NCBI GenBank assembly: GCA_963779755.1
Contig: CAVZZO010000003.1
Coordinates: 352,001-416,000 of the forward strand
DNA: 64,000 bases
DNA from: an uncultured Gemmatimonadales bacterium
GTDB taxonomy: Bacteria; Gemmatimonadota; Gemmatimonadetes; Gemmatimonadales; GWC2-71-9
Direction of reading: 5' to 3'
This document shows, piece after piece, positions 1 through 54,317 of this stretch; the stretch's first letter is position 1; every line of letters starts with the position of its first letter. The notes beneath the pieces were generated by a model, which saw only the letters and a list, made by a program, of their open reading frames with translations, was not told the origin of the DNA and searched no databases. A program made the position numbers and the translations under genes.

Positions 1-1648
1 CATCTCGCAGCCGATCAGCACCACACCTGCCCGGGGTCGGCCCTCCTGGCCCGTCCTTCTGGTCGCCATCTGGGCAGCCGGCGCGCTCATTCTGCTGGGC
101 CGTCTGGGCGTAGGCGGCTTGGTGGTGGCCCGGCTGGCGCGCCGGGCCACCCCGCTGGATGTGCCGGAATGGACTCGTCCACTGGTGGAGGGAGCCGACC
201 GGCTGGGGCTGCCTCGGCTTCCCGCGCTCCTGATGAGCCATCGGCTCCCGATGCCGTTCGCCTGCGGGCTGTTCCGTCCCACCATCATCCTGCCTGCCGG
301 CGCCGACGAATGGGACGACCGGCGGCGCCGCGCGGTGCTCTGTCATGAGCTGGCCCACCTCCGCCGGCTCGACCTGCCGGTGAGTCTGCTGGGCCAGATC
401 GCCTGCGCCGTGCATTGGTTCAATCCGCTGGTGTGGATGGCCGTGCGCCGGATGCGTATCGAGAGCGAGCGGGCCTGCGACGACCTGGTGCTGGGTGCCG
501 GCACCCGGCCCTCGGAGTATGCCGACCATCTGCTGCAGATCGTCTGCCGTTCCGCCCGTACCCGGCCCCCCGCCGTGGTTCTGCCCATGGCCCAGCGCCG
601 GGAATTCGAGGGACGTATGCTCGCCATTCTGGAGCGCGATGCGCGCCGCGAGCCGCTCACCCGGCGGCGCGCGGCCGGTCTCGCCGCGCTGACACTGGTC
701 CTGGTGCTGCCGCTGGCCGCGCTGGCCCCCGCGACGGGATCCTCCGCCGCGAAGCTGCCGGAGCCGGCGTCCCGGAACACTTCAGAGACGGCGGAACCCC
801 TCCCCACGACCACCAACCGGGAGGTGCGGGTGGACTCGTCCACCTCTACCCCCAGCCATCGGGAGCAGGAGACCCGGACGGTGACCTCCAACTCAGCCGC
901 GCCGGCACCAACGCCCGCTCCCGCGCCTCAGCCCTGGGACGGGAAGATTCGCAACCTGGCCGCCGCCGCAGCCGACACGAACGATCCACGGGTGGTAACG
1001 GGGCTGCTCCACGCGCTGGAAGATTCCGTACCCGCGGTCCGCGCCAATGCGGCCTTTGCCCTGGGGGAACTCGCGATCCGGTCCGCCGCGGGCCCCATGG
1101 CAGCCCGCCTCCAGCGGGAATCGAACAGCCAGGTCCGCGACCGGATCATCTGGGCCCTGGGCCAGTTGGAAAGCCGCGACGCCGTGCCCGCGCTGCAGCA
1201 AGTCATTCAGCGGGATTCCAGCGAAGAGCTTCGCAGCAAAGCCGTGTGGGCCCTGGGGCAGATTCAAGATCCCGCGGCCCTCCCCGCCCTGATCACCGCC
1301 CTGGGCGATCGCTCGCCGGAGGTGCGCGGGAAGGCAGCCTGGGCGCTGGGCCAGCTGGAGCCTCGAACCGCCCCGAAGGAGCTGATCGCCGCGTTGCGGG
1401 ATGGCTCCGCCGAGGTGCGGCGGCAGGCCGCGTGGGCGCTGGGCCAGATCGAGGACACCGCGGCGGTCGCCGGACTCATGACCACGCTGGGCGACAGCGT
1501 GACCAAAGTCCGGCGCACGGCGCTCTGGGCACTGGGCCAGATGGAGAGCCCAGTCACCCAGCCGGCCCTGCTCCGGGCACTCAACGATCCGGACCCTGAA
1601 ATCCGCGCGGCCGCAGCCCACGCTCTGGGTAACACCGGCGGCAACTGA
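1..1648 (+). CDS. BlaR1/M56-family metallopeptidase with C-terminal HEAT repeats (5' end outside window)
   Basis: HELAH zinc motif, HWFNPLVW...ESERACDD M56 signature, repeated AxWALGQ HEAT units; frame is open upstream of the 119 ORF start. Confidence 0.85.
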   Translation, partial: ISQPISTTPARGRPSWPVLLVAIWAAGALILLGRLGVGGLVVARLARRATPLDVPEWTRPLVEGADRLGLPRLPALLMSHRLPMPFACGLFRPTIILPAGADEWDDRRRRAVLCHELAHLRRLDLPVSLLGQIACAVHWFNPLVWMAVRRMRIESERACDDLVLGAGTRPSEYADHLLQIVCRSARTRPPAVVLPMAQRREFEGRMLAILERDARREPLTRRRAAGLAALTLVLVLPLAALAPATGSSAAKLPEPASRNTSETAEPLPTTTNREVRVDSSTSTPSHREQETRTVTSNSAAPAPTPAPAPQPWDGKIRNLAAAAADTNDPRVVTGLLHALEDSVPAVRANAAFALGELAIRSAAGPMAARLQRESNSQVRDRIIWALGQLESRDAVPALQQVIQRDSSEELRSKAVWALGQIQDPAALPALITALGDRSPEVRGKAAWALGQLEPRTAPKELIAALRDGSAEVRRQAAWALGQIEDTAAVAGLMTTLGDSVTKVRRTALWALGQMESPVTQPALLRALNDPDPEIRAAAAHALGNTGGN

Positions 1649-1729
1649 CGGCTGAGAAACGGGACAACCCGTTCCTCACAGAGTATTCCCGTATTCCGTG
1701 ATGCTGAAATTTCAGCACCATCAGAGGAG

Positions 1730-3298
1730 ATGCTCATAATGCTCACCGCATCCAACAACTTCTTCGCGCTCACCGCAGGGCTGGCCCTCATGTGCAGCCT
1801 GCGGTCCGGCGGCACGGCAGATCAGGCTACCGTGCGCGCTCCCCGGAGCGACGAGGCGGAGCTGGCGCGTACCGTCCTGGCCGCCTCGCGCGGAGCTCCT
1901 CCCCTGCTCTGCGCGCTGGCCACTCGTGCGGTGGAGTCCCGCTACGGCCGCTGGAGCGGGTTCCCCCCGCCCGCCGGCGGCTCCGATACCCTCCCTGCGG
2001 TACGCTGGGCGCTGAGCGACGATCCGGGCGCCGCTGCCCTACCGGTCCTGGTGGCGGCCCTGAATGACGAGGATCCCTGCGCCCGCGGCCTAGCCGCGCG
2101 GCTGATCTCCCGGTCGGAGGATCCCGCGGCCGCGGCCGGCATGCTGCGGGCGCTCTCCTCCTCCACGCCGGGAACCCGGGTCGCGGGAGCCGTGGCGCTG
2201 GGAATGGCGGAGGTCCCCGGTGCGTTGCAGCCGCTCCTCAACCGGCTGGGCGACGGCGACGCCGCCGTGCGCGCCACCGCCGCCTGGGCGTTGGGAAACT
2301 ACGATTCCCTCCGTGCCGGACCGGCGCTGCGGATGCTTCTCCGGGATCCTGTCCCGATGGTGCGAGGCGCCGGGGCTCGCGCGCTGGGACGGCTGGAGGA
2401 CACCACGGCGGTCGAGGCGCTGGCGCGGCTGCTGCGCTCGGACTCGGATGAGCGCGTGCGTATCGCCGCCGCGGAGGCTCTGGGGCAGATCGAATCGCGC
2501 GCCGCGGTGGGGGCGCTGACGGACGCCCTCGCCGACCGGAGTGCGGATGTTCGCCGCACCTCCGCCTGGGCTCTGGGGCAGATCGAATCGCCCGATGGGG
2601 TGCCGGGACTGATCCACGCCCTGGACGATGCCGATCACGAGGTGCGCGAGACGGCGATCTGGGCGCTGGGCCAGATCGAAGACAAGACGGCGGTGCCGGC
2701 CCTCTCACAGCGGCTGCAGCGCGACAATTCGCCGACGGCGCGCAAGCAGGCGGCCTGGGCCCTGGGCCAGATCGAAGATCGGTCGGCGGCCGGCGCGCTG
2801 GGCCACGCGCTGCAGACCGACACCAATGCCGAGGTTCGCAAGACCGCCGCGTGGGCTCTGGGACAGATCGAAAGCAGAGATGCCGTTCCCGCGCTCTCCG
2901 CCGCCCTGCGAGACAGTTCGGCGCAGGTGCGGGCGACCTCCGCCTGGGCCCTGGGGCAGATCGAGCCGGATCACGCCCCCGACGGGCTGGTTCCCGCCTT
3001 GAAGGATGGCTCGGCCGATGTGCGCAAGAACGTCGCGTGGGCCCTCGGCCAGATCGAGGACCGCGGCACCATCCCCGCGCTCCGGGATGCGCTGAAAGAC
3101 TCCGATGGCGAGGTTCGCCGCACCGCGCTGTGGGCGCTCTCTCAGATGGACGACGACTCCGCACGGGAGATATTCGTCGACCAGCTCAAGAGCGATGACC
3201 CGCAAATCCGCGCGGCCGCTGCCCGGGCGCTGGGCCACGGCAGCGCCGGCCCGCGTCCCCGGCCGCATCCCCGGCCCCAGCCGCGTCCCTTCCCATGA
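1730..3298 (+). CDS. HEAT-repeat (PBS lyase-like) protein
   Basis: Many tandem VRxxAAWALGQIE repeats; exact start uncertain. Confidence 0.85.
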   Translation: MLIMLTASNNFFALTAGLALMCSLRSGGTADQATVRAPRSDEAELARTVLAASRGAPPLLCALATRAVESRYGRWSGFPPPAGGSDTLPAVRWALSDDPGAAALPVLVAALNDEDPCARGLAARLISRSEDPAAAAGMLRALSSSTPGTRVAGAVALGMAEVPGALQPLLNRLGDGDAAVRATAAWALGNYDSLRAGPALRMLLRDPVPMVRGAGARALGRLEDTTAVEALARLLRSDSDERVRIAAAEALGQIESRAAVGALTDALADRSADVRRTSAWALGQIESPDGVPGLIHALDDADHEVRETAIWALGQIEDKTAVPALSQRLQRDNSPTARKQAAWALGQIEDRSAAGALGHALQTDTNAEVRKTAAWALGQIESRDAVPALSAALRDSSAQVRATSAWALGQIEPDHAPDGLVPALKDGSADVRKNVAWALGQIEDRGTIPALRDALKDSDGEVRRTALWALSQMDDDSAREIFVDQLKSDDPQIRAAAARALGHGSAGPRPRPHPRPQPRPFP

Positions 3299-13642: not shown

Positions 13643-14014
13643 TCATCGAGTGAGGTTGGCAATGTTCTTCAGTACCGCGCCCCACGCGACCCCGAGCAAG
13701 CCGGCTAACATCAGGGCATACAGTTCAAGCATAAGCGCCCAGCGGCCCACTTGACGCGTCTTCCAGGAATACCATGAAATGGCAAATGGAAGGAGCAGGT
13801 ACAGGAAGAACCCCGCATCCATTGCCCTGGTCAGGCCATGTCGCCGAACATTAGGTGCTAGCCACGTTACCACGGCGAGAGGCGGCACTATGGCAAGGAT
13901 GAGCCACATTCCTTGCGACGGCGGAACCCCCAGGAGGGAATAGAGCATGCCGAACAGCAGACACGAGCCGGTGATGATGTACAGCTTGTACCGGGGTGTC
14001 TCGACCTCGTCCAT
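13643..14014 (-). CDS. Hypothetical membrane protein (cassette)
   Basis: Four hydrophobic segments, GGAGGAG RBS, fills the inter-attC space. Confidence 0.7.
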   Translation of the reverse strand: MDEVETPRYKLYIITGSCLLFGMLYSLLGVPPSQGMWLILAIVPPLAVVTWLAPNVRRHGLTRAMDAGFFLYLLLPFAISWYSWKTRQVGRWALMLELYALMLAGLLGVAWGAVLKNIANLTR

Positions 14015-14171
14015 TGCTCCTCCGTTCAGGCCGTCCGCCTAACGAAGTGCGCGTGTGCTGCGGCGCGAACCCAACTTCCTTCACAAACTTACGGTTCCGC
14101 AGCGCGGCCGCTAGATGCCGGGGAGAGGCACTACGCGGCCGCACCGCCGGCCCTGTCAGCTCGACGCGCTC

Positions 14172-14708
14172 ATGTACGCGGATCCTTTCGGGTTGAGAGG
14201 CTGTCCAGATGTTACGGGAACTGACCCGAATAGTCTAGACGATTGTCCGGAGCGATCCCCAGGTTACTATGCTGCTCGCATTGCCAAGGGTGAAGGTAGC
14301 AGGGTGTTGAATACGGCTTTGGGAGTACTCGCCACGATGGGTCAGGTGCTGGCGGAGCATACGACGGGGAGTGTCACAGTCGGTGAAGAAAGTATCGAGA
14401 CGGATGCCTATGGACTCACGGGTGGACTGGAAAATGGCAATACCAGAGTAGTGCAACGAGTCGGACTTCCCCAGATAGGAGGAAGCCTCGGATTCACTGT
14501 TGGGAATCCGGGTACTGGCGCCGTTGATTTTGGATGGAGCAAGCATCTCGGCATCACGATTCATACCGTGCCCAGTCCTGAAGGCGGCGGAATCTCTGGA
14601 ATCACCTTCAATCTCGGAATCGGCACACCGACCCTTATCGGCATCCAGGACCGGACAGTCGTGTCGCAACCGATTCCCAAATGCCTCGTCTCATGTGCAC
14701 ATGAGTAG
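14172..14708 (+). CDS. Orphan Rhs-type toxin C-terminal tip A (Gly-rich)
   Basis: Begins MYADPFGL, matching the YxDPxGL motif that ends the Rhs core; followed by an overlapping small gene. Confidence 0.7.
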   Translation: MYADPFGLRGCPDVTGTDPNSLDDCPERSPGYYAARIAKGEGSRVLNTALGVLATMGQVLAEHTTGSVTVGEESIETDAYGLTGGLENGNTRVVQRVGLPQIGGSLGFTVGNPGTGAVDFGWSKHLGITIHTVPSPEGGGISGITFNLGIGTPTLIGIQDRTVVSQPIPKCLVSCAHE

Positions 14709-14937
14709 TCTACTTGGGTGGTTTCTGGTTGCCGGGGGAATTTTCTACATCGGCGCTGCTGCGTTCGACTGGATTGGGCGAGCAGCAAGTGTGCCCATCG
14801 TGAAGTGGCTTATCCTGCCGCTCCGCATAGGTGAAATACGCTGGGTTGGTGGTGGCAATCGACGATTTGCCGCTACCCTCGGCATCTTTCTTCTAGTCAT
14901 CGGCTTGCTACTCGTCTTGTTCGGTCCTGAACGATAG
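14701..14937 (+). CDS. Putative two-TM immunity protein (Imm17-like)
   Basis: MSSLLGWFLVAGGIFYIGAAAFDW...; overlaps toxin stop; Imm17 resemblance is from recollection and needs an HMM check. Confidence 0.6.
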   Translation: MSSLLGWFLVAGGIFYIGAAAFDWIGRAASVPIVKWLILPLRIGEIRWVGGGNRRFAATLGIFLLVIGLLLVLFGPER

Positions 14938-14945
14938 GCTGCCGA

Positions 14946-15435
14946 AGGAGCCGGCCTCGTCTAGCCTGGGGCGCTCGCAGTGCCTCCGGGTTGTCGGGCC
15001 TGAGCTCCGAGGGGTCGGGTCTAGTTAGGAGCCTCGCGGGCTGCCGCGCGTGGCGGACCTCGGCCGGCGGAAAAGGAAAGTGGTGGGGGCCCCACGAGTT
15101 CAGCGGAACCCATCGGCTCCAGACCTGCCGCGAGCCGGCTCCCTCGTCGGGCGTCATGCGCCCACGGGAGCAGACGGGGTCACCCCACCGGCTCCAAGGT
15201 GCTACCCGGTCCTTCGATTGTCAAAGAGCGCCGCGTTCCGCGTGCCGGCGGGATCCTGGCACCACCCTCATAGGTCGTTGAGGCTCGGGGCCTCCCACAT
15301 CTTCATGGATGCTCTCCGATCCGCGGCCGGGCGGCCAGCAACACTCTGTGCGCGGAGCTCACCGAAGACGCCGGCGGCTCAAGGCAAATAGTGGGCGGCC
15401 CGGCCGCGCACGCGCGGCTCCCCACCGATCTCCGG
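14946..15435. ncRNA. Candidate bridge/seekRNA-encoding non-coding region of the IS110 element (copies at 23197-23687 and 29671-30156)
   Basis: Conserved, hairpin-rich, no credible ORF, downstream of the recombinase as in IS1111-type elements; contains GTCTAGTTA (15019-15027) matching the insertion junction. Confidence 0.55.
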
Positions 15436-16704
15436 CTATTCGCTCACCACCGGCTCTGCCCGATGCCGCTGCGCCTCCCAGCGCTCCCGCTCGAACGGCT
15501 GGCCCGAGTGGAGTACGGCCAGGAGGAGCGGCACCAGCTTGCGCGCCACCGCACAGACCGCCTTGGTCCGGAGCCCGCCATTGCGGGCCAGCAGGGCCTG
15601 ATAGTACGCGCGGTAGAGCCCCCGGGGCTGGCACCAGCGGCCGCCCAGGAGGAACAGCTGGCGGCGGAGCAGCGGCCGGCCCCGTTTGGACTGTTTGCGC
15701 CGCCCCTGCACGCTGCCGCTGGAACGCTCGACCAGATTCATGCCTGCGAGTTTCAGCACCTGGCGGGGATGAGTGAAGCGCTCCGGAGTGCCCAGCTCGG
15801 CCACAATCGTAGCCGCACAGGTGGCACTCACCTCGGGAATGGTGGTCAGCGCCTTGGCGGCGGGACACTGCTCCACCAAGGCGGCGATCTGCTGGTTCAA
15901 CACCGCGAGCTGCTCCCGCAGGAGGTCCCAGCGGGCCAGGAGCTGCTGGATCTCCAACCGCCGCTCGGGAGCGGCGTCGGCCAGGGCGACACTGGTGCGG
16001 GCGGACTCGCGCAGGACGTGGAGCCGCTCCGGGCCCACGTGGCCCCGCGAGACGGACCGCGCCAGGCGCGTCACCGCGGCCGGGGCGGCCGCCAGGAAGT
16101 CCTGCGGCAGCGGCCAACGCGCCAGCAGGGCGCGCGGGGTGGGCTTGCGCACCTGCGAGAAGTGCGTCAGGAACTCGGGCCAGGCCAGGTCGAGCAGGCT
16201 CTGGAGACGGTTCTTGAACCGGGTTTCCTCGACGGTTAACCGGTGCCGGTGGGTGGTGAGCAGCCGCAGCTCGAGATACGGGGGCTGCAGCGCCGGATAT
16301 CCCACGAAGATCCCCAGGCTCACCAGCTTGCAGATCTCGGCGGCATCCTTCGCGTCCGTCTTGTTGGGGCTGTTATCCTCCAGTTCCTTGGCCCGCTTGG
16401 TGTGGGCCGGCAGGATATTGACCAGCGCATAGCCGCGCGCCCGCAGGCACTCGGCAAACGTGAAGCCGTGATGGCCGGCGAACTCCAGCCCCACCAGCAT
16501 CTGTCCGGGCCGGATGCCGGGAAACCAGGCCGTCAACTGCGCCGCGGCGGCCTCGAAGCCCGCGCGGCTCACCGGCACCCGGACCGGCTTCGTGCGGCGC
16601 CCATCGGGGCCCTGAGCAACCAGCACGTGGACCCGCTTCGCGGTATCCACGCCTACGTGAACGGGGAACGTGCGGGTATAGGCAGACTTTTCGTCGGGGG
16701 TCAT
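15436..16704 (-). CDS. IS110-family recombinase/transposase
   Basis: DEDD residues in HVGVDTAK, GLEFAG and KTDAKDA; C-terminal SSGS serine motif and AVARKL; ATG at 16704 has GGAG RBS (ORF track extends to 16731). Confidence 0.95.
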   Translation of the reverse strand: MTPDEKSAYTRTFPVHVGVDTAKRVHVLVAQGPDGRRTKPVRVPVSRAGFEAAAAQLTAWFPGIRPGQMLVGLEFAGHHGFTFAECLRARGYALVNILPAHTKRAKELEDNSPNKTDAKDAAEICKLVSLGIFVGYPALQPPYLELRLLTTHRHRLTVEETRFKNRLQSLLDLAWPEFLTHFSQVRKPTPRALLARWPLPQDFLAAAPAAVTRLARSVSRGHVGPERLHVLRESARTSVALADAAPERRLEIQQLLARWDLLREQLAVLNQQIAALVEQCPAAKALTTIPEVSATCAATIVAELGTPERFTHPRQVLKLAGMNLVERSSGSVQGRRKQSKRGRPLLRRQLFLLGGRWCQPRGLYRAYYQALLARNGGLRTKAVCAVARKLVPLLLAVLHSGQPFERERWEAQRHRAEPVVSE

Positions 16705-16800
16705 GGCGCGGCTCCGGGTGGAGGGAATCACAGGAGTCGCGGAAGGAGCTACGGGCCGCGCAGCGGCGTCAAGCGGGTATAGATGTCTAGTTAAGCGACT

Positions 16801-17107
16801 ATGCTCGGGTTGCGTACTTCACGGGGAGGTCAAGACTCCGCTCTCTTCTGCGGGGAGGCTCGACTCGAGGCCGGGGTGCTCCTGCGGCGACTCCGGCGGG
16901 GCGAGAAGCTCGGGCTCCCGCACTCCCGACCGATACCGGGACTCGGCCGGCGGTGTCAAGAGTTGCGGATTCCCGACCAAGGACGCCACCTGGCGGATCA
17001 TCTATCGGCTCGATCGAGACGCAATCGTGATTGTGGAGGTCTTTGCGAAGAGCCAAGCGACTCCACAACAGGTCCTGGCCACGTGCGCGCGGCGGCCGAA
17101 CCACTAG
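16801..17107 (+). pseudogene. RelE/HigB (Gp49-like) toxin, frameshifted
   Basis: LHGEVKTP, ARLEAGVLLRRL...PHSRP and WRIIYRLDRDAIVIVEVFAK lie in different frames. Confidence 0.7.
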
Positions 17108-22265: not shown

Positions 22266-22447
22266 GGGGGCTCCTCCTTGGAGCCTGAAATATAGCGGCG
22301 ACCGGTCCCTGACGCTTAACGAAGTGCGCGTGTGCTGCGGCGCGAACCCGCGCTCCTTCACAAACCTACGTTTCCACAGCGCGACAGCTAGATCCCCGGG
22401 AGATGCGCCGCCAGCCCGCGCGACCGGCCCGTCAGAACGACGCGCTC

Positions 22448-22903
22448 ATGTACGCGGATCCTTTCGGGCTGCTTGCCCAGGATTGTTGTATCGAAACGGG
22501 GGATTGGCGAAAGGATAACCTGCTTCACCCTGCTGTCTACAGCGGCAAGAGAGACAACCCGATGCTGGGAGTAGCTGTGGGTCTCCTGGCCGTTGCAGGT
22601 GGGGCCGAACTGGCTGCTCCCAGGTTATTTGCCGCGGCCACCGCTGCTCTTCCTAAGGTACCGTTTGAGAAATTCCAGGACTGGGGACGAAATGTTGTCC
22701 AATGGGGCCGTGGGGCAGCGGGGGCAATTCAGCGGGTTTCTGAAGTGACGGCCGAGCAGGCCTCTAAATTGGATCCACAGAAAGTGAAGATGGCTCGCGA
22801 CTTCTACCAGAAAGCTGTTGATGCTGGCCGAGGGGGAGCCGCCGCACCCGAACGAGTAAAGCTGATGGAACGCATTTTAGACCTGCAGCAGAGAACCCAT
22901 TAG
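22448..22903 (+). CDS. Orphan Rhs-type toxin C-terminal tip B (DUF4951-like C-terminus)
   Basis: Begins MYADPFGL, hydrophobic middle, WGRGAAGA...RDFY...RVKLM; DUF4951 resemblance is from recollection. Confidence 0.7.
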   Translation: MYADPFGLLAQDCCIETGDWRKDNLLHPAVYSGKRDNPMLGVAVGLLAVAGGAELAAPRLFAAATAALPKVPFEKFQDWGRNVVQWGRGAAGAIQRVSEVTAEQASKLDPQKVKMARDFYQKAVDAGRGGAAAPERVKLMERILDLQQRTH

Positions 22904-22949
22904 TGGCTCGGTCCGGTCTATTCGAGCATTGCAACACGGAGGAAGAGCC

Positions 22950-23198
22950 ATGCTGGAAGCAGCGGTCACACTTCGGCTTACGAATAGATGCGAAACTGCG
23001 CGGAAGCTCGTGATTGAGCCATGGACCACCGAGTTTCGACTGCAACCTGGGCACACTTACGACTTGGTGATATCAGGGGACCTTGGCCTCCCCTTAGAGG
23101 TTGAGTTCGAGGACGACGAACTAACCGTATACACTTTCGATTCCGCCAATGCCTCCTTCAAGATTTCCGAAGGCGGGGCTGAACTTAAACCACTGTAG
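22950..23198 (+). CDS. Putative immunity protein B
   Basis: GGAGG RBS, small acidic protein after the toxin, IEPW motif shared with 40756-41010. Confidence 0.65.
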   Translation: MLEAAVTLRLTNRCETARKLVIEPWTTEFRLQPGHTYDLVISGDLGLPLEVEFEDDELTVYTFDSANASFKISEGGAELKPL

Positions 23199-23687
23199 GA
23201 GCCCGGCCCTGTCTAGCCTGGGGCGCTCGGGGCGCCTCCGGGTTGTCGGGCCTGAACTCCGAGGGGTCGGGTCTAGTTAGGAGCCTCGCGGGCTGCCGCG
23301 CGTGGCGGACCTCGGCCGGCGGAAAAGGAAAGTGGTGGGGGCCCCACGAGTTCAGCGGAACCCATCGGCTCCAGACCTGCCGCGAGCCGGCTCCCTCGTC
23401 GGGCGTCATGCGCCCACGGGAGCAGACGGGGTCACCCCACCGGCTCCAAGGTGCTACCCGGTCCTTCGATTGTCAAAGAGCGCCGCGTTCCGCGTGCCGG
23501 CGGGATCCTGGCACCACCCTCATAGGTCGTTGAGGCTCGGGGCCTCCCACATCTTCATGGATGCTCTCCGATCCGCGGCCGGGCGGCCAGCCATACTCTG
23601 TGCGCGGAACTCACCGAAGACGCCGGCGGCTCAAGGCAAATAGAGGGCGGCCCGGCCGCGCACGCGCGGCTCCCCCCCGGTCTCCGA

Positions 23688-24956
23688 CTATTCGATCACC
23701 ACCGGCTCTGCGTGATGCCGCTGGGTCTCCCAGCGCTCCCGGTCGAACGGCTGGCCCGACTGGAGCACGGCCAGGAGGAGCGGCACCAGCTTGCGGGCCA
23801 CCGCGCAGACCGCCTTGGTCCGGAGCCCCCCGTTACGGGCGAGCAGGGCCTGATAGTACGCGCGGTAGAGCCCCCGGGGCTGGCACCAGCGGCCGCCCAG
23901 GAGGAACAGCTGGCGGCGGAGCAGCGGCCGGCCCCGTTTGGACTGTTTGCGCCGCCCCTGCACGCTGCCGCTGGAACGCTCGACCAGATTCATGCCTGCG
24001 AGTTTCAGCACCTGGCGGGGATGAGTGAAGCGCTCCGGAGTGCCCAGCTCGGCCACAATCGTAGCCGCACAGGTGGCACTCACCTCGGGAATGGTGGTCA
24101 GCGCCTTGGCGGCGGGACACTGCTCCACCAAGGCGGCGATCTGCTGGTTCAACACCGCGAGCTGCTCCCGCAGGAGGTCCCAGCGGGCCAGGAGCTGCTG
24201 GATCTCCAACCGCCGCTCGGGAGCGGCGTCGGCCAGGGCGACACTGGTGCGGGCGGACTCGCGCAGGACGTGGAGCCGCTCCGGGCCCACGTGGCCCCGC
24301 GAGACGGACCGCGCCAGGCGCGTCACCGCGGCCGGGGCGGCCGCCAGGAAGTCCTGCGGCAGCGGCCAACGCGCCAGCAGGGCGCGCGGGGTGGGCTTGC
24401 GCACCTGCGAGAAGTGCGTCAGGAACTCGGGCCAGGCCAGGTCGAGCAGGCTCTGGAGACGGTTCTTGAACCGGGTTTCCTCGACGGTTAACCGGTGCCG
24501 GTGGGTGGTGAGCAGCCGCAGCTCGAGATACGGGGGCTGCAGCGCCGGATACCCCACGAAGATCCCCAGGCTCACCAGCTTGCAGATCTCGGCGGCATCC
24601 TTCGCGTCCGTCTTGTTGGGGCTGTTATCCTCCAGTTCCTTGGCCCGCTTGGTGTGGGCCGGCAGGATATTGACCAGCGCATAGCCGCGCGCCCGCAGGC
24701 ACTCGGCAAACGTGAAGCCGTGATGGCCGGCGAACTCCAGCCCCACCAGCATCTGTCCGGGCCGGACGCCGGGAAACCAGGCCGTCAACTGCGCCGCGGC
24801 GGCCTCGAAGCCTGCGCGGCTCACCGGCACTCGGACCGGCTTCGTCCGCCGGCCATCGGGGCCCTGGGCGACCAGGACGTGAACGCGCTTGGCGGTGTCC
24901 ACACCCACGTGGACGGGAAACCAGCGGGCGTAGGCGGACTTCTCATCGGGGGTCAT
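23688..24956 (-). CDS. IS110-family recombinase/transposase
   Basis: Near-identical to 15436-16704 with variant termini. Confidence 0.95.
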   Translation of the reverse strand: MTPDEKSAYARWFPVHVGVDTAKRVHVLVAQGPDGRRTKPVRVPVSRAGFEAAAAQLTAWFPGVRPGQMLVGLEFAGHHGFTFAECLRARGYALVNILPAHTKRAKELEDNSPNKTDAKDAAEICKLVSLGIFVGYPALQPPYLELRLLTTHRHRLTVEETRFKNRLQSLLDLAWPEFLTHFSQVRKPTPRALLARWPLPQDFLAAAPAAVTRLARSVSRGHVGPERLHVLRESARTSVALADAAPERRLEIQQLLARWDLLREQLAVLNQQIAALVEQCPAAKALTTIPEVSATCAATIVAELGTPERFTHPRQVLKLAGMNLVERSSGSVQGRRKQSKRGRPLLRRQLFLLGGRWCQPRGLYRAYYQALLARNGGLRTKAVCAVARKLVPLLLAVLQSGQPFDRERWETQRHHAEPVVIE

Positions 24957-25065
24957 AGCGCGGCTCCGGGTGGAAGGAATCACAGGAGTCGCGGAAGGAG
25001 CTACGGGCCGCGCCGCGGCGTCAAGCGGGTATAGATGTCTAGTTAGGCTTCACTGCGCATTCAAC

Positions 25066-28797: not shown

Positions 28798-28922
28798 GAA
28801 GTGCGCGTGTGCTGCAGCGCGATCCCTCAGGATTTCACAAACTTACGCTTCCACAGCCGCGCCGCCAGGAGGCCGGAGCATGGGCCCGCGGCCCGCGCGA
28901 CGGCCTGCAGAACGACGCGCTC

Positions 28923-29377
28923 ATGTACGCGGATCCTTTCGGGCTGCCTGCCCAGGATTGTTGTATCGAAACGGGGGATTGGCGAAAGGATAACCTGCTT
29001 CACCCTGCTGTCTACAGCGGCAAGAGAGACAACCCGATGCTGGGAGTAGCTGTGGGTCTCCTGGCCGTTGCAGGTGGGGCCGAACTGGCTGCTCCCAGGT
29101 TATTTGCCGCGGCCACCGCTGCTCTTCCTAAGGTACCGTTTGAGAAATTCCAGGACTGGGGACGAAATGTTGTCCAATGGGGCCGTGGGGCAGCGGGGGC
29201 AATTCAGCGGGTTTCTGAAGTGACGGCGAGCAGGCCTCTAAATTGGATCCACAGAAAGTGAAGATGGCTCGCGACTTCTACCAGAAAGCTGTTGATGCTG
29301 GCCGAGGGGGAGCCGCCGCACCCGAACGAGTAAAGCTGATGGAACGCATTTTAGACCTGCAGCAGAGAACCCATTAG
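28923..29377 (+). pseudogene. Toxin tip B, frameshifted copy
   Basis: Same as 22448-22903 apart from a 1-nt deletion near 29227 and a substitution near the start. Confidence 0.75.
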
Positions 29378-29423
29378 TGGCTCGGTCCGGTCTATTCGAG
29401 CATTGCAACACGGAGGAAGAGCC

Positions 29424-29672
29424 ATGCTGGAAGCAGCGGTCACACTTCGGCTTACGAATAGATGCGAAACTGCGCGGAAGCTCGTGATTGAGCCATGGAC
29501 CACCGAGTTTCGACTGCAACCTGGGCACACTTACGACTTGGTGATATCAGGGGACCTTGGCCTCCCCTTAGAGGTTGAGTTCGAGGACGACGAACTAACC
29601 GTATACACTTTCGATTCCGCCAATGCCTCCTTCAAGATTTCCGAAGGCGGGGCTGAACTTAAACCACTGTAG
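29424..29672 (+). CDS. Putative immunity protein B (copy)
   Basis: Identical protein to 22950-23198. Confidence 0.65.
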   Translation: MLEAAVTLRLTNRCETARKLVIEPWTTEFRLQPGHTYDLVISGDLGLPLEVEFEDDELTVYTFDSANASFKISEGGAELKPL

Positions 29673-30156
29673 GAGCCCGGCCCTGTCTAGCCGGGGCGCT
29701 CGGGGCGCCTCCGGGTTGTCGGGCCTGAACTCCGAGGGGTTGGGTCTAGTTAGGAGCCTCGCGGGCTGCCGCGCGTGGCGGACCTCGGCCGGCGGAAAAG
29801 GAAAGTGGTGGGGGCCCCACGAGTTCAGCGGAACCCATCGGCTCCAGACCTGCCGCGAGCCGGCTCCCTCGTCGGGCGTATGCGCCCACGGGAGCAGACG
29901 GGGTCACCCCACCGGCTCCAAGGTGCTACCGGTCCTTCGATTGTCAAAGAGCGCCGCGTTCCGCGTGCCGGCGGGATCCTGGCACCACCCTCATAGGTCG
30001 TTGAGGCTCGGGGCCTCCCACATCTTCATGGATGCTCTCCGATCGCGGCCGGGCGGCCAGCAACACTCTGTGCGCGGAGCTCACCGAAGACGCCGGCGGC
30101 TCAAGGCAAATAGAGGGCGGCCTGGCCGCGCACGCGCGGCTCCCACCGATCTCCGG

Positions 30157-31422
30157 CTATTCGCTCACCACCGGCTCTGCGTGATGCCGCTGCGCCTCCC
30201 AGCGCTCCCGCTCGAACGGCTGGCCCGAGTGGAGTACGGCCAGGAGGAGCGGCACCAGCTTGCGCGCCACCGCACAGACCGCCTTGGTCCGGAGCCCGCC
30301 ATTGCGGGCCAGCAGGGCCTGATAGTACGCGCGGTAGAGCCCCCGGGGCTGGCACCAGCGGCCGCCCAGGAGGAACAGCTGGCGGCGGAGCAGCGGCAGG
30401 CCCCGTTTGGACTGTTTGCGCCGCCCCTGCACGCTGCCGCTGGAACGCTCGACCAGATTCATGCCTGCGAGTTTCAGCACCTGGCGGGGATGAGTGAAGC
30501 GCTCCGGAGTGCCCAGCTCGGCCACAATCGTAGCCGCACAGGTGGCACTCACCTCGGGAATGGTGGTCAGCGCCTTGGCGGCGGGACACTGCTCCACCAA
30601 GGCGGCGATCTGCTGGTTCAACACCGCGAGCTGCTCCCGCAGGAGGTCCCAGCGGGCCAGGAGCTGCTGGATCTCCAACCGCCGCTCGGGAGCGGCGTCG
30701 GCCAGGGCGACACTGGTGCGGGCGGACTCGCGCAGGACGTGGAGCCGCTCCGGGCCCACGTGGCCCCGCGAGACGGACCGCGCCAGGCGCGTCACCGCGG
30801 CCGGGGCGGCTGCCAGGAAGTCCTGCGGCAGCGGCCAACGCGCCAGCAGGGCGCGCGGGGTGGGCTTGCGCACCTGCGAGAAGTGCGTCAGGAACTCGGG
30901 CCAGGCCAGGTCGAGCAGGCTCTGGAGACGGTTCTTGAACCGGGTTTCCTCGACGGTTAACCGGTGCGGTGGGTGGTGAGCAGCCGCAGCTCGAGATACG
31001 GGGGCTGCAGCGCCGGATATCCCACGAAGATCCCCAGGCTCACCAGCTTGCAGATCTCGGCGGCATCCTTCGCGTTCGTCTTGTTGGGGCTGTTATCCTC
31101 CAGTTCCTTGGCCCGCTTGGTGTGGGCCGGCAGGATATTGACCAGCGCATAGCCGCGCGCCGCAGGCACTCGGCAAACGTGAAGCCGTGATGGCCGGCGA
31201 ACTCCAGCCCCACCAGCATCTGTCCGGGCCGGACGCCGGGAAACCAGGCCGTCAACTGCGCCGCGGCGGCCTCGAAGCCTGCGCGGCTCACCGGCACTCG
31301 GACCGGCTTCGTCGCCGGCCATCGGGGCCCTGGGCGACCAGGACGTGAACGCGCTTGGCGGTGTCCACACCCACGTGGACGGGAAACCAGCGGGCGTAGG
31401 CGGACTTCTCATCGGGGGTCAT
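30157..31422 (-). pseudogene. IS110 recombinase, frameshifted copy
   Basis: Homologous to the other two copies but split across frames. Confidence 0.85.
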
Positions 31423-31508
31423 AGCGCGGCTCCGGGTGGAAGGAATCACAGGAGTCGCGGAAGGAGCTACGGGCCGCGCCGCGGCGTCAAGCGGGTATAG
31501 ATGTCTTG

Positions 31509-52800: not shown

Positions 52801-52969
52801 TCGGCGCCTGAGATGTCTTTCTAACCAGGCAGGCTCTGCCGCAATCAAGCACCCATCGACGTAGCACTTAGGCCCTTGGTTGATCTTTGCTGTCGTTCCG
52901 GAAAAGCGCAAGAGGTGTCGATGTAGGAGGCCCGGAGTCTCTGTTACAGGTAACAGCGCCCTCCTCCTG

Positions 52970-53071
52970 GCGCTGTCCTCTGCACGACCCTCCCAGCGCC
53001 ATCCTCTGCACGACCCTCCCAGCGCTGTCCTCTGCACGACCCTCCCAGCGCCGTCCTCGGCGACCCTCCCA
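52970..53071. repeat. 26-bp tandem repeat, about 4 units
   Basis: GCGC(TG/CA)TCCTCTGCACGACCCTCCCA at 52970, 52996, 53022 and a shorter unit at 53048. Confidence 0.9.
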
Positions 53072-53143: not shown

Positions 53144-54136
53144 CTACGCCCGGTCCATCGGGCTCCGCACCCCCAGCCCACCCCGCTGCAGGACATGGGT
53201 ATAGATCATCGTGGTGCTGACGTCCCGATGGCCCAGCAGCTCCTGCACGGTCCGGATGTCATACCCATCCTCCAGCAGGTGGGTCGCGAAGCTGTGCCGC
53301 AGGGTGTGGCAGCTCGCCCGCTTGGTGAGGCCCGCCGCCTGGACCGCCTTGCGCATGGCGCGCTGCAGCAGACTATGGTGCACGTGGGTCCGCCCCTGCC
53401 CTCCCGTCTCCGGCTCGACCACCATGATCCTCCTCCCGGGGAAGAGATACTGCCAACGCCACTCCCGCGATGCCGCCGGGTACTTGCGCCGCAACGCGAA
53501 CGGCAGCGGCGCCACCCCCAGCCCCTCACTCAGGTCGCGCTGATGCCGCAACCGCAGCTGCGCGAGGTACTGCGTGAGTTCGTCCCGAAGGCTCATGGGC
53601 AGCATGGTACTGCGGTCCTTGGCCCCCTTGCCGCTCCGGACCATGACCTGGCTCATGGTGAAATCCAGGTCCTGCACCCGCAGCCGCAGGCACTCGGTCA
53701 GCCGCAGACCACTCCCATAGAGCAGGCTGGCCATCAGCCGGCACCGCCCCCGCAGCTGCCGCAGCACCAGCCGAACTTCCTCCCGGCTCAGCACCACCGG
53801 CAATCGATGCGGCCGCTTGGCCCACACGATCTGTTCCACCTGCGCCAGCTCCCGCCCCAGGACCTCCCGGTAAAGAAAGACCAGCGCCGAGAGCGCCTGG
53901 TTCTGGGTGCTCGCCGCCACCCGCCCCCGCAGCGCCAGGTCGGTCAGAAAGTCTCCCACCTCCCGCTCGGCCAGATCGGCCGGGTGGCGCTTGCCGTGGA
54001 AGAGGACAAAACGCCGGATCCAGTGCACGTAGGAACGCTCGGTCCGGGGGCTGTAGTGCCGGGCACGAATGGCCTGCCGGACCAGGGGCAGGAGCCGGGG
54101 ACGCGCCCGCACGGGCGGCTGCAGGGCGGAATCCAT
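53144..54136 (-). CDS. intI: Integron integrase
   Basis: [12 protein letters not shown]-terminus, [34 protein letters not shown] and the IntI-specific insertion [10 protein letters not shown]...WRWQYLFP. Confidence 0.97.
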
Positions 54137-54317
54137 GCGCCAACCTATAACGAGGCAGGGCAAGCCTCGGCCTGATTGGAGCGCAGCCGGGCACGGAAAA
54201 GCGCGGGGCAGCTCGGGAGGGGGGATTCAGCGGGTCCCTGCGCCGTCTTCCCGCCTTCCCGCCTTCCCGCCTACCTTTGGATCACACCATTGCCAGGTCC
54301 CGCGCCCGGAGGTCGTC

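Follow-up and report, generated by a model that had tools for sequence, protein, structure and literature searches.

Elements in the attC array

We analysed 64,000 nucleotides of contig CAVZZO010000003.1 (positions 352,001 to 416,000, hereafter referred to as the window) from an uncultured Gemmatimonadales bacterium (assembly GCA_963779755.1), in which an integron attC array is interrupted by three full copies (E1-E3) of an element composed of a predicted toxin tip with a small gene (the cargo), a non-coding region and a recombinase gene. The data presented below suggest that this element exchanges the tips of Rhs proteins in frame and that attC is its second programmed target. The three copies were found at the coordinates, and with the ends and layout, first given for them in the initial annotation of this DNA, and a fourth full copy (E4, cargo B) was identified on contig C1 (C1:684203-686787), in a second attC region of the genome. 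A solitary recombinase-side (right-end) fragment of 137 nt, followed by an attC end, at C1:673507-673643 is the remnant of a fifth insertion.

14171..16786 (no strand): E1 (2616 nt), inside an attC; CT comes next, at 16787-16788
14037..14170 (no strand): attC interrupted by E1; its final bases come after the element, at 16789
22447..25038 (no strand): E2, intact, cargo B; inside an attC
28922..31504 (no strand): E3, cargo B, tip and recombinase frameshifted; inside an attC
53144..54163 (minus strand): tyrosine integrase at the array end, in the same orientation as most cassette open reading frames (ORFs)

The array (10000-54163) contains 52-55 attC-like repeats of about 140 nt each, with many duplicated cassettes. 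Every full unit (E1-E4) is bordered by CT and splits an attC. The backbones of the copies are 94-97% similar, whereas the cargo of E1 (cargo A) has only its first 25 nt in common with cargo B of E2, E3 and E4, in agreement with the annotated contrast between unrelated cargos and a near-identical backbone. Just two cargo types occur among the four copies, with a GC content of 55-56%, versus 70% for the backbone. Relative to E2, E3 has nine small deletions and E4 has eight, of which seven and five, respectively, are single bases in runs; they may be read errors or decay. The initial annotation predicted that removing a unit with one CT would restore an attC. In silico, this yielded sites of 139-142 nt with the attC ends of the array, and the bottom strands of the restored E1 and E3 sites form long hairpins; in the minimum-energy structure of the E2 site, the ends are unpaired. 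The cassette ORFs lie mostly on the minus strand (27 minus, 13 plus, 11 short), and the element tip opposes this majority. As the tip in the attC copies is without an Rhs core and runs against most cassette ORFs, attC looks like a parking site for the tip-bearing unit.

15436..16704 (minus strand): IS110 DEDD/serine recombinase of E1, 422 amino acids
23688..24956 (minus strand): recombinase of E2, intact
16705..16786 (no strand): short recombinase-side end of E1, terminating in GGGTATAGATGT, the left donor arm

The minus-strand gene had been annotated as an IS110 recombinase, and that of E1 matched PF01548 (DEDD RuvC-like, E = 1.7e-24) and PF02371 (serine domain, E = 1.4e-16), with residues D20/E74/D117/D120 and S329 intact in E1 and E2. 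On this sequence evidence, the element is a member of the IS110 (bridge recombinase) family. The non-coding sequence measures about 490 nt on the downstream side of the recombinase gene and 82 nt on the upstream side, an IS1111-type placement. A search for sub-terminal inverted repeats in the 11-13 bp range (7-17 according to Durrant 2024) detected none, the best being 6-7 nt long with one mismatch.

Related elements and their insertion sites

Relatives were scanned for in metagenomes (80 loci, the best 80 of 151) and genomes (43 loci, mostly from named Gemmatimonadota); further loci came from 401 genomes of the host's phylum, nine of which matched, the host genome (G000) among them. A single-protein scan of the genome contigs gave no match, and an alignment scan gave matches. 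There were 137 non-self loci with at least 38% identity, and 45 distinct, near full-length loci with 2 kb of downstream DNA were evaluable. The 26 loci initially scored as having no DPxG were re-read, and several proved to have variant motifs or partial recombinases.

A DPxG tip was present 880-2000 nt from the recombinase in 42 of the 45 evaluable relatives and absent from three (a count made without a shuffled control). These 42 elements were inserted in frame with an Rhs core (19), directly behind the end of another element (nine), in a repeat site with the sequence GCCCTAAC (five), in attC (one), after a bare NP/DP (two) or elsewhere (six). The open frame from core to cargo tip exceeded 950 codons in all six loci examined, and both of the two scanned contained RHS repeats. 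Two copies of one whole unit of 2771 nt (2.77 kb), the first in an Rhs gene and the second at a non-Rhs site (L055 and L049), are 95% alike, and another unit is identical in two places, inside a core and behind another element. The cargo therefore travels with the unit, as had been claimed for the window.

The GCCCTAAC site (L021, L030, L037, L049 and L052) constitutes a third programmed target and lies next to defence-like genes. Ahead of it are two direct repeats of 10 nt, spaced about 22 nt from each other; a search of these loci for an integrase found none. Insertions in attC were found at L029, L067, L106 and L145. At L065, the insertion lies a few bases off the usual attC position, and one target loop matches the shifted site. 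Three other tip-bearing elements (L060, L047 and L073) are inserted outside Rhs and attC, two of them at ORF starts, and each site matches one of the element's own loops; they are natural off-target insertions. No carrier was found in viral contigs (one relative, 33% identical) or plasmids (35 records, all below 60% identity, those listed at 31-33%).

The element end is coding and in phase with Rhs

14171..14192 (plus strand): cargo-side end of E1, the right donor arm; also encodes the Rhs (L)MYADPFG motif, its codons being in phase with the core

The 22-nt end defined in the initial annotation is present as described, but is itself coding sequence for (L)MYADPFGL. Translated from the core, it reads L-M-Y-A-D-P-F-G-L, which is the Rhs DPxGL motif at which the variable tip begins (Poole 2011; part of the text of this and of the other papers cited was available). 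The general end pattern is the core, xx-[FY]-x-DPFGL, the tip and a small gene. In rhs genes, the element lies at the V codon after NP or DP, fusing the incoming tip in frame to the Rhs core and displacing the old tip, together with its immunity gene, to a position downstream of the inserted element.

The crossover occurs at one fixed base, and the displaced tip retains no core remnant. The left junction keeps the two bases of the target and the right junction those of the donor; as these differ in 17 of 20 Rhs insertions, the apparent duplication of CT in attC arises because the two cores happen to match there. The junction tables show the IS110 feature of recombination at a short core with no target duplication. 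In silico removal (core left, displaced tip right) put the old tip back in frame in 17 of 20 loci; of the other three, two lack a single base and the third contains a stop upstream. The proline codon of DPFG is CCT in 35 of 42 element tips versus one of 29 displaced tips, indicating that the DPFG codons are the element's own.

Donor and target guides in the non-coding region

15257..15306 (minus strand): donor loop of E1; left and right donor guides flank a hairpin; covaries with the element ends
14951..15005 (minus strand): target loop a of E1; guides ACAACCCGG and AGCC, corresponding to Rhs Asn-Asn-Pro-Val-Ala codons
15011..15064 (minus strand): target loop b of E1; guides ACGCGC and CTAGTTAG, corresponding to the attC site of this array
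23203..23316 (minus strand): target loops a and b of E2
29677..29789 (minus strand): target loops a and b of E3
15218..15224 (minus strand): TTGACA-like hexamer between donor and target loops, conserved in both lineages

On the recombinase strand, the donor loop comes first and is followed by one to four tandem target modules. The donor guide matched 34 of 35 AGATGT ends and 18 of 18 AGAGGT ends, and the right donor guide varied together with CACG, CATG and TT-core ends. A covariance model of the target module (model R1, trained on 32 modules) detected exactly two modules in each element of the window. Its 125 matches in 75 other loci included 118 within the non-coding region of 59 loci, with one module in 12 loci, two in 36, three in 10 and four in one. 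Both module stems covary (95.6% of cells paired and 150 double changes, in an alignment fitted to the model). Model R1 misses the target loops of a second, roughly 40% identical lineage (five loci), which were read by eye. The hexamer is a possible promoter for a separate target-loop RNA; a sigma-70 scan gave no full promoter match, and Rfam gave no matches across 14000-17000.

The best loop scored 8.38 of 13 against its own insertion site (n = 29), versus 7.18 ± 0.28 for permuted sites (0/2000) and 5.15 for random DNA; this test excluded two window copies that are duplicates and three loci in which the junctions are damaged. The sequences predict a non-coding RNA, as in other IS110 elements, whose donor and target guides vary in step with the DNA sites.

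The identification of attC as a guide-matched target was upheld, since loop b spells attC. No intact perfect site for its 13-nt sequence is left in the genome, all 16 one-mismatch sites lie in arrays, and the attC sites of the best match class are all occupied (3/3, versus 1/55 for the other sites). The initial annotation went further, viewing the element as an RNA-guided shuttle that mainly stores and spreads toxin-immunity modules through integron arrays. Occupation of attC by all four full copies in this genome (4/4), the filled best sites and the recurrence of attC insertion at the four loci named above are consistent with such a role. Among the evaluable relatives, however, one of 45 is in attC and 19 are in frame with Rhs cores; the RNA of every window copy retains the Rhs loop, the element end is phased to Rhs codons, and insertion breaks attC with the tip opposing most cassette ORFs. 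This main role was therefore not supported, and we consider it quite unlikely.

A host Rhs cluster and a second lineage

The host genome carries an Rhs cluster (C3:1485500-1548500; L161-L164) with four long rhs genes encoding 1394-1665 amino acids and at least six orphan tips. Interspersed among them are genes for type II secretion (GspD, E, F, G) and for sigma-54-type regulators, which suggests that the Rhs proteins are type II-secreted. A second-lineage IS110 element with the same layout and a 41% identical recombinase lies in an Rhs orphan module of this cluster (C3:1486022-1488851; L161, L009), where it is inserted after the second base of the Val codon in NPV. The tip that it carries continues the reading frame of a core fragment, and the old tip lies beyond its far end. 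This element also has its own immunity-like gene and two target-like loops, read by eye.

In two other genomes, G153 (L178-L181) and G294 (L183-L185), both lineages are stacked alternately in one rhs locus, with two successive elements, one from each lineage, between the core and the old tip. Read by eye, the right target guide of the 40% lineage matches the end of the other lineage at three loci, and loop a of that other lineage in turn matches the end of the 40% lineage. From these reciprocal matches, the insertion of each lineage would create a site for the other.

Cargo tips and small genes

14172..14708 (plus strand): tip A (E1), 178 amino acids, glycine-rich; no Pfam family
14701..14937 (plus strand): small hydrophobic ORF (E1), 78 amino acids; overlaps the tip A stop
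22448..22903 (plus strand): tip B (E2), 151 amino acids, DUF4951; homologues end RHS-repeat proteins
22950..23198 (plus strand): small acidic ORF (E2), 82 amino acids, with a ribosome-binding site; modelled as a tip B binder

Tip A is a putative toxin, given its position after DPxGL, and the 78-residue ORF beside it is probably its immunity gene. For cargo B, a HMMER search returned 101 relatives of the tip. The homologues terminate long proteins, with RHS repeats in seven of the 16 scanned, and the four closest homologues inspected start at DPFGL. Tip B can be classed from its sequence as an Rhs C-terminal domain: a variable domain that begins at DPxGL and ends RHS-repeat proteins. A word-indexed search for longer relatives of tip B found none, and the 82-residue gene had no homologue other than itself. 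The single-sequence fold of tip B was poor (predicted local distance difference test, pLDDT, 52) and gave no match at E = 0.001, the top row being Acinetobacter protein 2mmb. The model of tip B in complex with the 82-residue product scored 0.76, versus 0.19 for the best of three controls, with runs agreeing in 100% of contacts and a partner pLDDT of at least 89; the mark applied is reached by 116 of 157 solved pairs versus two of 215 mismatched pairs. The model points to the 82-residue product as a probable immunity protein, and these results sustain the description of the cargo as an Rhs tip with a probable immunity gene.

The initial annotation also called for a census of cargo diversity, and its view of the cargo as exchangeable stood. 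We obtained 64 distinct tips of 139-185 amino acids (selected for a length above 100), which fell into 52 clusters. Ten of the 64 had a Pfam family at E = 0.01, including phage lysozyme, M23, HNH, ribonuclease, DUF4329, PT-TG and DUF4951, and weak matches to CHAP and M15 were seen. Atlas matches for tips A and B, serving as leads only, scored 0.82 for polymorphic-toxin clusters and 0.90 for unnamed clusters.

The same mechanics might operate with no functional exchange, the conserved Rhs motif being a safe repeat, the fused tip neither made nor delivered, and the cargo kept by its immunity gene or by neutrality. Expression of fused tips and killing are themselves predictions made from sequence, and several insertions lie in orphan or broken modules (R1 of this genome, L061, L102 and L127). 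Set against this, the 64 distinct tips have all kept open frames, tips are fused to long cores, and recognizable catalytic families are present among them; we give this possibility scarcely any credence.

A proposed guided exchanger of Rhs tips

The findings are best explained by an IS110-family bridge-recombinase element that exchanges Rhs tips in frame and for which attC is a second programmed target (rough probability 0.82); E1-E4 would then be the exchanger in its attC-parked state. The element would be excised as a circle joining its two ends, a form expected from IS110 biology (Durrant 2024; Siddiquee 2024). The recombinase and bridge RNA would recombine this circle at the Rhs motif, past the first two bases of a Val, Ile or Ala codon. 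The fusion Rhs protein with its new tip might be secreted, type II secretion genes flanking the host rhs genes, and the cargo immunity gene would protect the carrier cell. The second target loop would direct the unit to attC or to another non-coding repeat, where the tip would be silent and copy number could rise. Excision would reverse the tip exchange. The element might gain in that the toxin gene stays functional, and its carrier may be armed against kin lacking the new immunity gene. Donor-type end-core-end junctions occur in two stacked loci (L041 and L132), and the termini of one metagenome contig (L036) coincide exactly with both element ends.

Several observations weigh against this explanation. 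None of the four copies of the E1-E4 lineage is inside an rhs gene of this genome (0/4). Loop a scored 5-10 of 13 against the seven host Rhs sites scored, and all four copies may be in attC because of this weak match. Own-site matches were weak (4-6 of 13) in seven of 31 rows; four of these represent stacked sites, and some loops escape the model. As kin elements are not independent, the permutation and Fisher values are overstated. The 12-nt loop b guide has 505 genomic sites within two mismatches, 33 of them in arrays, and eight non-array sites within one mismatch of the Rhs 14-mer are empty. Guide pairing by itself is insufficient for specificity, and further site determinants are likely because hundreds of near matches stay empty. 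No Pfam match was found for 54 of the 64 tips at E = 0.01. No joint of a circle or empty site was detected in three runs of contigs, in which cover is too sparse to count either way. The explanation gives no account of how new tips become cargo.

A further point concerns elements without cargo. The initial annotation held that homologues ending at the non-coding region would speak against cargo as part of the unit. The tip carried by 42 of 45 relatives answers this, but a cargo-less subgroup of four loci (L083, L084, L087 and L088), with a TT core and inserted in tRNA-like genes, does not fit; in a quick, unfinished tree with a midpoint root, it is nested among tip-bearing elements. The end of this subgroup resembles the cargo-side end of E1.

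Such elements raise the question of incidental capture, in which an ordinary IS110 element that landed beside rhs tips excises together with them because a sequence resembling its end is recognized as a half-match. The in-frame pattern would then be the product of homologous recombination at DPxG rather than of guided insertion. The accessible parts of two preprints report IS110 loci laden with cargo (10.64898/2026.08.14.744561) and half-match excision (10.64898/2026.08.31.748434), and the short right donor arm and the similar end of the cargo-less subgroup would accord with this origin. The end has its own codons, however, as the CCT bias shows, and its own covarying guide. Furthermore, one loop spells Rhs codons, the crossover falls at a single fixed base with no core remnant on the displaced tip, two lineages about 40% identical behave alike, and the cargo-less subgroup is nested. 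Incidental capture is, in our judgement, very improbable.

Returning to the guided exchanger, we find it plausible, and rather probable than not, that it amounts to a dedicated RNA-guided toxin-diversification system. With several target loops in its bridge RNA, a single recombinase could reach the Rhs motif, codon variants of that motif and non-coding parking sites. Lineages would stack reciprocally, each arrival installing an in-frame warhead, with earlier tips and immunity genes retained and excision switching back. If so, protein domains would be exchanged programmably in nature, by a site-specific version of the circular Rhs tip carrier proposed in 2009.

Comparison with known systems

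The element resembles IS621/ISCro4 (Durrant 2024, PMC11208160; PDB 8wt6 and 9t56), the only solved relatives found, in its DEDD and serine domains, its two-base core and its donor and target guides split by a hairpin. As far as the accessible text describes those elements, it differs in that the RNA lies downstream of the gene, the donor loop is followed by one to four separate target loops, the core bases of target and donor mostly differ (in 17 of the 20 Rhs insertions above), and the end encodes protein and continues the reading frame of the target gene. With the IS1111-attC group (ISKpn4, ISPst6; Siddiquee 2024, PMC11187229), it shares the downstream non-coding region and guided insertion near one attC end. 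Unlike the members of that group, as described in the part of the paper available, it has no 11-13-bp sub-terminal inverted repeat and carries toxin cargo, and attC is one of several programmed targets.

For Rhs tip displacement, Jackson 2009 proposed, but did not identify in the text available, a circular episomal tip carrier acting by homologous recombination. In that model, as here, DPxGL is the point at which the incoming tip is attached, and the previous tip is shunted downstream with its immunity gene. There, however, homologous recombination takes place over core fragments of variable length, whereas here there is one base, no core fragment and a linked recombinase with site guides. The expanded cargo-bearing IS110 loci (10.64898/2026.08.14.744561) likewise have passenger genes within their boundaries, and small elements move whole; unlike in our element, their cargo is mainly resistance genes, and the available text describes no in-frame fusion. 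The main text of that preprint does not mention rhs, toxin, attC or integron, and the main text of a 2026 bridge-RNA survey does not mention rhs, toxin or attC. Literature searches on IS110 or bridge RNA with Rhs, polymorphic toxin, cargo or several target loops, with subscription papers and preprint supplements outside their scope, yielded no description among the papers listed, and those on IS1111/attC/seekRNA, Rhs displacement with insertion sequences and Gemmatimonadota Rhs found no such element in the text accessible. The chemistry is that known for IS110, and the tip-exchange function appears to have no described counterpart in the literature searched.

These elements offer a concrete site-specific carrier for Rhs tip gain, a question that becomes testable in one plasmid assay because the junctions and guides are predicted. 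Two features are absent from the accessible text of the bridge-RNA papers searched, namely several target loops per donor loop and a coding end fused in frame; both bear on site choice by bridge recombinases and on multiplexed or in-frame genome writing.

Other features of the window

Four 24-nt tandem repeats lie near the array end (about 52960-53070). At the other side of the window, two proteins with HEAT repeats are encoded in succession at positions 119-3298: in the first, the repeats are fused to a BlaR1/M56 peptidase, and the second is a further HEAT-repeat protein (93-nt repeats).

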